From the NCBI GenBank assembly GCA_964581255.1, contig CAZOMT010000034.1:3865-67864 (forward strand): a DNA stretch of 64,000 nt. Direction: 5' to 3'. Under the pieces are notes generated by a model, which searched no databases, was not told the DNA's origin, and saw nothing but the letters and a program-made list of their open reading frames with translations. Positions 272 through 44,688 of the stretch are shown piece by piece. The first letter of the stretch is position 1. Each line of letters opens with the position of its first letter. The translations under genes and the position numbers were made by a program. Source of the stretch: an uncultured Thermodesulfatator sp. (lineage in GTDB: Bacteria; Desulfobacterota; Dissulfuribacteria; Dissulfuribacterales; QOAL01).

Positions 272-447
272 AAAACTGTGCGCATCTTCGGTTTTTCCGG
301 AAAAGGAGTATCTGAATGGGATAAGGATGTGAGTTGACATGGATGAATTTTTGCCAAAAGCCCTTTTCTGAATCGGCTGAAACAGCATGCTCACAAGAAT
401 CTGGATATGTTCTTAACTCTTTTGAAGAATTATGGGATAGCCCCGAA

Positions 448-596
448 GAGAAGGGGAAAGGTGGGCCTAAAAGGGCCTTGGAAGCAGAAGTCCGCCCTGA
501 CAAGCTTCTAAGGCTTGGCTTCACTGAAACCTCCAAAGCCGCTAGCTTATAGAGGCTTCGGGTGCTTCGCCTCGCCTGGGAATCTGTAACAGGCTC
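448..596. repeat. Copy A of a dispersed intergenic element of about 150 nt (candidate structured RNA or miniature repeat)
   Basis: Aligns in the same orientation with 43821..43979 at roughly 70% identity by eye. Shared blocks are GAAAAGGGG..GGGCCT.AAAGG, GCTTC.AAGGC, CTGAAAC, CTCCAAAG.CGCT.GCTT, GCTTCGC and GAATCTGTAAC.GGCTC. An internal hairpin lies at 516..541. Confidence 0.7.
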
Positions 597-750
597 TTTC
601 AATGGTTTTTAAACCCTGCCAGCCCCCCTTTTCCCCCGGTCTTAGAAAGGCTAAGCCTGACCTGACTTTTGAACAGACTATTTGGGATCGGCATCAGGGT
701 TCCTATTTGCCGGAAGAATCACATTTTCTTCATGCACCTAGCCTTAAACG

Positions 751-3403: not shown

Positions 3404-4069
3404 ATGTTTACTGGGATAATAGAAGGCCTTGGAACCATAACTGGCATAAGCTCTGCCTCTCAGGGTGTGAGATTCAAGATAAGGCCCGATTTCCACATGG
3501 ATGATCCGGAAACTGGTGAAAGTATCGCCGTTAATGGAGCCTGTCTCACAGCCACTGATTTCACCGCAGATTCCTTCATGGTGGATGTATCGCCTGAAAC
3601 CTTGTCGAGAACTACACTCGGGACATTCAAAGCAGGCACCAGGGTTAACCTGGAACGCGCCCTCAAGCTTTCAGATAGACTTGGAGGCCATATTGTGAGC
3701 GGCCATGTGGACTGTGTAGCAACCATAGCAGAAAGGGCCCCCCAGGGAGAGTTTACGATATTTTCGTTCCGTATCGAGCCCAGATTCGACCGTTATCTCA
3801 TTGAAAAGGGCTCTGTTGCCATTGACGGAATCAGCCTTACAGTCAATACATGCGGTAAAGGCAGCTTTTCCGTTGCCATTATTCCCCATACGGCTAAACT
3901 TACGACCTTGTCCTTTAAAAAGGCAGGAGACAAGGTAAATATTGAGCTGGACATTATAGGAAAGTATATTGAAAAATTGCTTCTTACAACAGATGAAAAG
4001 GAACCATCAGACAAAACGTCTAAGGCCAAGGTGGACAAGGATCTCCTGGCCAGGCATGGCTTTCTGTAA
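3404..4069 (+). CDS. ribE: Riboflavin synthase (alpha chain)
   Basis: MFTGIIEGLG N-terminus and two lumazine-binding repeats (second repeat ...GGHIVSGHVD...). Located in the rib cluster. Confidence 0.9.
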   Translation: MFTGIIEGLGTITGISSASQGVRFKIRPDFHMDDPETGESIAVNGACLTATDFTADSFMVDVSPETLSRTTLGTFKAGTRVNLERALKLSDRLGGHIVSGHVDCVATIAERAPQGEFTIFSFRIEPRFDRYLIEKGSVAIDGISLTVNTCGKGSFSVAIIPHTAKLTTLSFKKAGDKVNIELDIIGKYIEKLLLTTDEKEPSDKTSKAKVDKDLLARHGFL

Positions 4070-43530: not shown

Positions 43531-43820
43531 AAAACTGAAAAAAACTTACTCGAATTGACGCAAACACTCAATTCTGTCTTTTGGGATTTAACGGGCCATC
43601 AGGATAAAACAGACCTTCATGATATCCTAGAATAAATAGCATTGGCACGTGGTGGGCCAGGGCTCAAAAAGGTTCTTCCGGCCCGCGAGTACCTGAGCCC
43701 AATCCCAAAGACCCCAGGCAAAACTTAAGGTCAATCACACATCTTCAGTCCTTAAAAGTGCTCCATGAAAGAGGCGGAACGCAGCCTTTATTCAGACGGT
43801 AAAAGAGGCTACAGCGATTT

Positions 43821-43979
43821 GGAAAAGGGGCAAGGGGGCCTGAAAGGACGTTGAAAACAGGAATCCACCCAAACAGCTTCCAAGGCCCGATTTTGCTGAA
43901 ACGCTCCAAAGTCGCTGGCTTGTGCGCGAAAAAAGAAGTTTCAGGCGCTTCGCTTCACCTAAGAATCTGTAACGGGCTC
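43821..43979. repeat. Copy B of the dispersed intergenic element
   Basis: Homologous to 448..596 in the same orientation. Hairpin at 43888..43914 (CGAUUUUG / CAAAGUCG). It ends at the hypB stop codon. Confidence 0.7.
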
Positions 43980-44688
43980 ATTTTTCTAATAATATCTTAT
44001 TGAGATATTCAAGCCACTCATCTACGCCTGTGCCAGTAGTAGCGGACAGGGTCAGGATTTTTATATCGGGGTTAAGCCTTTTTGCCTCAGAGCACGCCTC
44101 TTCTATGGAAAAATCAAAATAGGGGAGCAGATCCGTCTTTGATATTATGAAAAGATCAGATCCAATAAAGGCCCTGGGATACTTGGCAGGCTTGTCCGAG
44201 CCTTCAGGCACCGAAACCATAACCATCCTCTTGTGTTCGCCAAGATAAAAGGTAGCAGGGCAAACCAGGTTCCCGACGTTTTCTATGAAGACAAGATCAA
44301 GTTCATCTGGGCCCAAAAGATGTTCCAACTCATGTATGCCCTTGTGCACAAGAGCAGCATCCAAATGGCAAGCACCACCTGTAGTTATCTGAACGGCGGG
44401 AATCCCTTTGGCCCTTATCCTGTCTGCATCTCTTTGAGTCTCTATGTCGCCTTCAATCACTCCAAACCTTGTGGCTCTGGAAAGCCTTTCCGCAGTTGCT
44501 TCAAGAAGCGTTGTCTTTCCAGCCCCAGGGCTGCTTATCATGTTTATGGCAATGGCACCCATCTGTTCTATGTGATGCCGGTTTTTCTCTCCAAGTCGCT
44601 GGTTGGCATCGAGAAGGCTTTTGTTTATTTCTATGACCTTTTTCTCAGATGATGCCCCTCCTGCCTGACATCCACATTCATCACACAT
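43978..44688 (-). CDS. hypB: Hydrogenase nickel incorporation GTPase HypB
   Basis: MCDECGC N-terminus, P-loop SSPGAGKTT, 236 aa. Confidence 0.92.
   Translation of the reverse strand: MCDECGCQAGGASSEKKVIEINKSLLDANQRLGEKNRHHIEQMGAIAINMISSPGAGKTTLLEATAERLSRATRFGVIEGDIETQRDADRIRAKGIPAVQITTGGACHLDAALVHKGIHELEHLLGPDELDLVFIENVGNLVCPATFYLGEHKRMVMVSVPEGSDKPAKYPRAFIGSDLFIISKTDLLPYFDFSIEEACSEAKRLNPDIKILTLSATTGTGVDEWLEYLNKILLEK

Follow-up and report, generated by a model that had tools for sequence, protein, structure and literature searches.

Two intergenic stretches in an uncultured member of the Thermodesulfobacteriota are probably relics of a non-autonomous, hairpin-forming interspersed repeat

The definition of a MITE used here includes small dispersed copies without a transposase ORF, terminal inverted repeats, a target-site duplication, a stem-loop and a parent IS (PMC3184786). 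MITEs that are palindromic over their whole length are known from several bacteria, namely ERIC/IRU of enterobacteria, Correia/NEMIS of Neisseria and Chunjie of Geobacter (Delihas 2011, PMC3184786). REPINs are hairpin-forming doublets of REP sequences, thought to be handled as a folded single strand by RAYT / TnpA-REP (PMC3116915, PMC3337134, PMC8266576), and the REP head is a conserved GTAG/CGTC tetranucleotide (PMC3733652). The ends of IS200/IS605 elements and their protein-less derivatives (PATEs) are likewise subject to single-strand DNA processing of the HUH type (PMC6006769). Here we describe two related stretches, copies A and B, in a 64-kb piece of DNA (the whole stretch analysed, referred to as the window), together with the repeat family to which they belong. 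On sequence grounds, the best reading is a putative new MITE- or REPIN-like non-autonomous element.

We compared the two stretches with each other and with the rest of the window. Window positions 448–599 and 43822–43982 align in the same orientation with 72.4% identity over 163 columns (blastn against the window, E 2e-19), in agreement with a sequence-only reading that had put the identity at about 70% in the same orientation, and MAFFT aligns 400–650 with 43770–44030, again in the same orientation. The two stretches are real paralogues, and no third copy was found in the 64-kb window by blastn, by the nhmmer family profile or by the covariance model. Annotation of ORFs and neighbouring genes also bears out the earlier placement of both copies in intergenic DNA. 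A ferredoxin-like gene, which ends at 271, and a CxxCxxCC-domain gene flank copy A, and copy B has an exosortase-like gene on one side and hypB-hypA on the other. The CxxCxxCC-domain gene (751–1497) probably starts at GTG 784, which is preceded by AGGAGA and corresponds to the start of the 237-aa homologues in L102–L106, and the ATG at 751 given by the ORF finder is probably not the start. A scan for tRNA and tmRNA genes found none. Rfam searches of the window and seven related loci gave no match at gathering thresholds and only chance-level matches at permissive ones.

Copy A is overlapped by ORFs on both strands, at 334–552 on the plus strand and at 216–602 on the minus strand; the latter, of 128 aa, had been missed when the former was described as the only ORF across the copy. 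This overlap could point to decayed duplicates of a protein-coding gene, but neither ORF has a Pfam match, the MAFFT alignment of A and B contains indels of 1, 1, 1 and 10 nt, and similar ORFs are sporadic over the family copies and lie on differing strands. The earlier argument against a coding explanation is correct, and we regard descent from a coding gene as effectively refuted, together with chance similarity, which is excluded by the blastn E value of 2e-19 and by dozens of homologues. The ORFs over copy A are probably spurious gene calls caused by the repeat. The plus-strand ORF (~69–72 aa) is called as a 69-aa gene in a metagenome annotation (L001 2592–2801).

The features of both copies are collected in Table 1. 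An extent of about 150 nt (448–596) had been proposed for copy A, which captures its inner part and falls short of the full copy. The covariance model matches copy A from end to end (438–651, 157 bits), a score that is expected and says little alone, copy A being in the training alignment, and the nhmmer profile, which also had copy A among its input, matches 445–637. Within the corrected bounds the long hairpin is recovered on the minus strand (z = -2.3). Folding within the bounds of the sequence-only reading did not differ significantly from shuffles on either strand (z -1.2 to +0.7), a result that is misleading because those bounds cut away the right arm. The central stem of copy A is visible in the covariance-model alignment, while ~11 nt of the family loop are deleted.

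Table 1 Features of copies A and B and of the adjoining DNA, in window coordinates.
Feature	Position	Strand	Description and basis
Copy A, full-length but decayed member of the palindromic repeat	~438-652	.	Model match, fold and self-alignment
Left outer arm of copy A	452..484	.	GGGGAAAGGTGGGCCTAAAAGGGCCTTGGAAGC; pairs with 604-636 in MFE folds; counterpart of the subfamily-1 left arm
Right outer arm of copy A	604..636	.	GGTTTTTAAACCCTGCCAGCCCCCCTTTTCCCC; beyond the extent first proposed; reverse complement of the left arm with mismatches (self-alignment)
Central stem-loop of copy A	524..561	.	CTGAAACCTCCA (524-535) : TAGAGGCTTCGG (550-561), 10/12 positions paired
Local hairpin of the sequence-only reading, copy A	516..541	+	UGGCUU / AAGCCG, loop containing CUGAAAC
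Possible further internally deleted element fragment	356..403	+	AAAAGCCCTT ... GCTGAAAC ... AAGAATCTG, collinear with the consensus
Copy B, member lacking the right outer arm (3'-truncated)	43814..43980	.	Left arm, centre and inner right arm present
Central stem-loop of copy B	43896..43944	.	CTGAAAC (43896-43902) : GTTTCAG (43938-43944); stem extension degraded
Terminator-like hairpin and U-run in copy B	43928..43962	-	On the hypB-sense strand; pattern scan

Copy A is flanked by TAGCC...GGCTA. The ~150 nt on each side of it (272–437 and 653–783) are absent from the 16-nt spacers of L103–L106, can be aligned only loosely to L102 and are unexplained. Part of the upstream flank (356–403) may derive from another piece of the element with an internal deletion, weakly suggested by three short exact matches with E values of 0.15–2.4 each. 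A second assembly of the window's own species (L002) breaks inside copy A, at window position 613, which is the usual behaviour of a repeat in short-read assembly. In copy B, family homology stops at GGGCTCA, of which the final TCA (43978–43980) is the reverse complement of the hypB stop codon. The HypB C-terminus reads ...LNKILLEK (stop) here and ...LESILKR (stop) or ...LSGILK (stop) in relatives.

The sequence-only reading had drawn attention to a local hairpin in each copy. The alignment confirms that these hairpins exist where they were placed, with CGAUUUUG/CAAAGUCG of copy B in the same alignment columns as UGGCUU/AAGCCG of copy A, and that CUGAAAC is conserved. The compensatory changes adduced in their support are not borne out across the family: the sole double change is copy B itself and the covariation is no better than that of shuffles (188/500). 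Nor is this hairpin, which is 84% paired across 24 family members, the conserved structure that it was taken to be; the conserved stem of the family is CUGAAAC(N)CUCCA / UGGAG(G)UUUCAG. The local hairpin and the long central hairpin are mutually exclusive because the CUGAAAC loop of the former is one strand of the central stem in the latter.

Dozens of dispersed intergenic copies were found in relatives by pattern scan and nhmmer. An exact-pattern scan of one genome per species with the block CTGAAAC(N)CTCCAAAGNCGCT returned 44 loci, ~30 of which are clearly homologous from end to end, and the same pattern occurs at 54 loci in JGI metagenomes, mainly in samples Ga0256914 and Ga0256835. The real members cluster in the MAGs CAYZJS01 (labelled uncultured Thermodesulfatator sp.), JAMOVK01 and JAMOUE01 (both Deltaproteobacteria PIR-30) and CAYMRT01 (Desulfobacterales), and several contigs of the two samples agree with MAG contigs both in length and in where the element lies. 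With a 24-copy profile, at least 27 non-overlapping copies were detected in 19 fetched loci of CAYZJS01 and 12 in 10 fetched loci of JAMOVK01. Viral contigs and plasmid and phage collections gave no match. As far as these searches show, the family appears confined to a few uncultured Thermodesulfobacteriota MAGs.

All copies are intergenic and occur in both orientations, mixed relative to the neighbouring genes, and about one-third of them lie 100 nt or less from a contig end. Their neighbours are unrelated housekeeping genes, for example those for NDK, ribonucleotide reductase, Clp protease, SRP54 and flagellar rod proteins. All-against-all BLASTP revealed no recurrent protein near the copies. 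When 98 neighbouring proteins were scanned against Pfam and PHROGs, and a further 10 queries were run directly on Pfam, only housekeeping functions came up. No parent IS or transposase was found among the ORFs near at least 60 copies, no TnpA or TnpB gene was found near copies and no RAYT gene was seen in the fetched loci.

Comparison of the aligned copies indicates how the element is built. It is ~205–230 nt long, lacks a conserved ORF and is an imperfect palindrome from end to end; the one-hairpin fold is obtained for 24/24 copies and reaches -111 kcal/mol (z = -7.98) in an intact member. The copies fall into at least four subfamilies, whose outer arms are wholly different in sequence and yet complementary within each subfamily. 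Self-alignment of the subfamily consensuses shows the arms to be reverse complements, with 64–75 Watson-Crick positions in each, and terminal inverted repeats are present in this sense. The central ~90 nt, by contrast with the arms, are nearly invariant: GCTTCG-CTGAAAC-N-CTCCA-AAGCCGCTCGCTnnCGCTCGCTAAA-TGGAG-G-TTTCAG-CCGCTTCGCTTCGCC. This module consists of the stem CTGAAAC-N-CTCCA / TGGAG-G-TTTCAG, a loop with GCTCGCTnnCGCTCGC, and a GCTTCG-like motif on both sides in direct orientation. The next helix outward, CAGCTTCTAAGGC / GCCTAAGAATCTG, is common to the subfamilies and carries the same two mismatches in every one.

Pairing is strongly maintained across the family. The central helix is 98% paired over 24 copies, and the inner 30 pairs of the 24-copy alignment are 97.8% paired with 29 double-change cells, a value reached by none of 500 shuffles. 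Covariation of the arms is compatible with an RNA hairpin, a DNA hairpin or co-evolving terminal repeats alike, and cannot separate them. The minus strand, complementary to the orientation of the sequence-only reading, folds ~11 kcal/mol better in 24/24 copies. The A.C mismatches of the subfamily-1 and subfamily-2 consensuses become G.U on the minus strand; at the consensus level plus-strand mismatches number nine A.C against five G.U, which is not significant, and G.U counts in the MFE folds are similar on the two strands (205 vs 232). The folding advantage of the minus strand leaves room for a function of one strand.

Some copies are joined into larger units. The subfamily-1 elements of the CAYZJS01/Ga0256914 organism usually form the left end of a composite repeat of ~645 nt. 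In this unit the element is followed by a conserved non-coding spacer of ~250 nt and then by an inverted element, whose arms are of the subfamily-3 type and whose centre is a variant (GAAATCCA...TGGATTTC). At least 10 such composites, ~83% identical, are present (L017 665–1400, L015 2470–3225, L067, L100, L026, L064, L073, L044, L019 and L032). A small ORF in the composite spacer, MKEITVFLVFQGLF..., was considered as a gene and rejected, as different copies carry a stop codon, a missing start or a deletion; Rfam finds nothing in the composite region. Analogous inverted pairs, 350–380 nt apart, occur in the JAMOVK01 organism (L025 1547–2281, L041 5230–5995 and L098 6301–7034), where L025 and L041 have similar spacers that differ from the CAYZJS01 spacer. 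In a chimeric copy (L035 1–120 and L036 6373–6568), a left arm and centre of subfamily 1 run straight into the right half of the second element of the composite. The simplest explanation is that the central hairpins of a composite's two elements recombined and a deletion resulted. The composite elements of L021 2526–4516 (the same as L066 7027–9017) are 1.5 kb apart instead of ~0.3 kb, and the extra DNA holds a 165-aa ORF (3465–3959) with no Pfam match.

We examined the sites of both window copies in relatives. In L102–L106, whose CxxCxxCC protein is 72–73% identical to that of the window, gene order is kept, and the spacer between the Fer4 and CxxCxxCC genes, ~512 nt long in the window, measures 16 nt (L103–L106) or 143 nt (L102). 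In L107 and L108 (HypB 73% identical), 15 nt separate hypB from the exosortase gene, against ~450–510 nt in the window, and L109 (HypB 78% identical) has a 310-nt spacer without the element. The covariance model found no match at E <= 10 in these empty-site loci. As judged from the spacers, both window sites are shown to be unoccupied in the nearest relatives. At 72–78% protein identity, these relatives have intergenic DNA that has diverged too far for insertion boundaries to be read from an empty-site alignment. L025 and L038 were considered as an empty-site pair and rejected, synteny breaking at the element.

The substitutions in resident copies bear on what happens after insertion. Among 22 subfamily-1 copies, the substitution frequency per site per copy was 0.052 where bases are paired and 0.056 where they are not. 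Where one base of a Watson-Crick pair had changed in these copies, the outcome was G.U on the plus strand in 39 cases, G.U on the minus strand in 37 and a mismatch in 45. Resident copies decay neutrally after insertion, regardless of pairing or strand. Substitutions that are equal in stem and loop and symmetric between strands are unlike those of an RNA selected on one strand at each locus. With the subfamily-4 copy L006, which is also in the set, excluded, compensated changes affect four base pairs only, in about three sub-lineages. So few changes fit selection that acts on pairing while the element propagates, and not in copies already resident.

These results weigh against a family of trans-acting sRNA genes, in which each copy would have its own promoter and the hairpins would be functional RNA structures. 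Paralogous sRNA families such as Qrr, PrrF and RsmX/Y/Z have 2–5 copies with conserved promoters, terminators and synteny. The repeat resembles them in comprising several similar intergenic non-coding copies with conserved stem-loops; the element is conserved between two unlinked loci, keeps a strong hairpin potential across the family with compensatory changes and consistently folds better on its minus strand. It differs from them in having tens of copies per genome, in truncated, chimeric and nested copies, in lineage-specific presence and in a lack of conserved promoter- or terminator-like signals within the unit. Promoter-like sites are at chance level (one around copy A with 1.3 expected, one around copy B with 0.8 expected), and a pattern scan found no terminator-like site around copy A. 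In addition, relaxing the Rfam thresholds brings up nothing beyond chance level, relatives lack the element at both sites, and the copies face either way with respect to the genes beside them. Resident copies change without regard to pairing or strand, and little of the excess stability is left in the window copies (z -0.7 to -2.3). We consider an sRNA family highly improbable.

Of the two identities offered by the sequence-only reading, an sRNA family or a miniature repeat, the second is retained, with dispersed copies, inverted arms and empty sites in its favour, and the first is dropped for its lack of an Rfam match, of conserved signals and of strand-specific decay. The two window stretches are probably old and decaying insertions of a non-autonomous hairpin-forming interspersed repeat of ~215–230 bp rather than a pair of sRNA genes. 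We propose that the element spreads, or once spread, by means of an enzyme encoded elsewhere in the genome, which would recognise the folded hairpin and its conserved tip on single-stranded DNA. Recognition of this kind is suggested because the tip and not the ends is conserved, because the arms keep complementarity and not sequence, and because a target-site duplication is not seen. After insertion the copies would be neutral and decaying, and any present effect in the window incidental, for instance an RNA hairpin in read-through transcripts or, for copy B, possibly a terminator of the hypAB operon.

A more conventional route would make the repeat a classical MITE, that is, an internally deleted derivative of a DDE-transposase IS, moved through its terminal inverted repeats with a short target-site duplication. 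Long inverted arms, small size, the lack of an ORF and a multi-copy intergenic distribution agree with this, as do the TA...TA that bounds copy A and the recurrence of two-element composite units flanking 250–380 nt. However, no target-site duplication of at least 3 bp was found, by eye or by script, at any consistent offset within 12 nt of the ends of six composite and six subfamily-2 copies; with fuzzy ends and copies 10–20% diverged, a 2-bp duplication such as TA is compatible with the data. Conservation is lowest at the termini and highest at the centre, the opposite of what is predicted for ends bound by a transposase, the variable arm segments preserve complementarity and not sequence, and a parent IS or transposase was not seen near any copy. 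A DDE transposase that binds terminal repeats fits the conservation pattern less well than hairpin recognition does, and we think a classical MITE unlikely.

The hairpin-recognition reading can be taken further, to an undescribed mobile element recognised at its hairpin tip. In such an element, the ~90-nt apical module, with its stem, a loop of iterated GCTCGC motifs and direct GCTTCG repeats at the foot, would be the recognition and cleavage site of a single-strand DNA enzyme encoded elsewhere, HUH-like or of another kind; the arms would need only to pair, and pairs of elements would mobilise 250–380 nt of non-coding cargo as ~645-nt composites. We offer this more specific version tentatively, as a possibility with a small chance of being right. 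Two described types of site were compared with the family and rejected. Integron attC sites lie in cassette arrays and are imperfect palindromes with RYYYAAC ... GTTRRRY core sites at their base; GCCCTAAC and GTAACGGGC do not fit these cores, and the copies are single and dispersed, not arrayed. Tn3-type ends (GGGG...TAAG, with a 5-bp duplication) do not fit the family.

Co-option by the host could come on top of a mobile origin, with the hairpins acting in cis on RNA as stabilisers or terminators of mRNA 3' ends and copy B ending the hypAB transcript. Some ERIC and REP copies have been shown to be co-opted in this way. Co-transcribed MITEs are reported to affect mRNA stability (PMC3184786). 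Copy B begins at the hypB stop, the hypB-sense strand has a hairpin followed by CUUCUUUUUU, a U-run that derives from A-rich changes specific to copy B (43924–43938), and many family copies sit just downstream of genes. Against this, the terminator-like site of copy B is at chance level in the pattern scan (1 found vs 1.1 expected), orientation to the upstream gene is mixed and the stems show no excess conservation in resident copies. The copy B hairpin may be an exapted hypAB terminator, which is only suggestive, and co-option of the hairpins seems unlikely.

For the window, the preferred reading of a decaying mobile repeat means that the candidate sRNA family can be removed from the annotation. 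This reading also accounts for the unusual length of two intergenic gaps, for the place where a contig breaks off in another assembly of this species, and for spurious ORFs over the repeat. Both window copies are relics. More widely, a family of interspersed palindromic repeats is now on record for uncultured Thermodesulfobacteriota. Repeats of this sort interrupt the assembly of metagenomes and can supply nearby operons, possibly hypAB here, with terminators or RNA hairpins.

Comparison with the described systems places the family among the interspersed palindromic repeats of bacteria, taken as a general class, although its pattern of conservation is unusual. A limited full-text search found no published description of the family and nothing relevant on MITEs in Thermodesulfobacteria or Desulfobulbaceae. 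Of the features in the MITE definition, the family has multi-copy dispersal without a transposase ORF, terminal inverted repeats and a long stem-loop, and lacks a detected target-site duplication. Like ERIC/IRU, Correia/NEMIS and Chunjie, it is small (100–400 bp), non-coding, multi-copy and intergenic, with inverted arms that form a long stem-loop, and its copies occur in either orientation, often just downstream of genes, some of them truncated or nested. Unlike them, it is conserved at the centre and not at the termini, has no known parent IS, shares no sequence similarity with them, shows no target-site duplication and resides in an uncultured host of the Thermodesulfobacteriota.

The family also resembles REPINs, as non-autonomous hairpin repeats without target duplication whose propagation is thought to depend on a folded strand and an enzyme encoded once elsewhere, and which form sequence populations with master-copy dynamics and decaying relics. 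REPINs measure ~70–110 nt and are built from two REPs of 20–40 nt, whereas the unit here is one palindromic hairpin of ~230 nt, outside the REP and REPIN size, with an invariant apical centre of ~90 nt. The tetranucleotide of the REP head is not a family feature either: CTAC/GTAG is present only in the right arm of subfamily 1, and is absent from subfamilies 2–4 and from both window copies. With IS200/IS605 elements and PATEs the family shares recognition of an imperfect hairpin, binding that does not need terminal inverted repeats, the lack of target duplication and a strand-specific chemistry, as far as the proposed mechanism would hold. The hairpins of IS200/IS605 are short (20–40 nt), subterminal and different at the left and right ends, whereas here the entire element is one palindrome. 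Given its conserved centre and with no target duplication seen, the family may be a reasonable place to seek hairpin-recognising mobilisation outside the REP/RAYT and IS200/IS605 paradigms.
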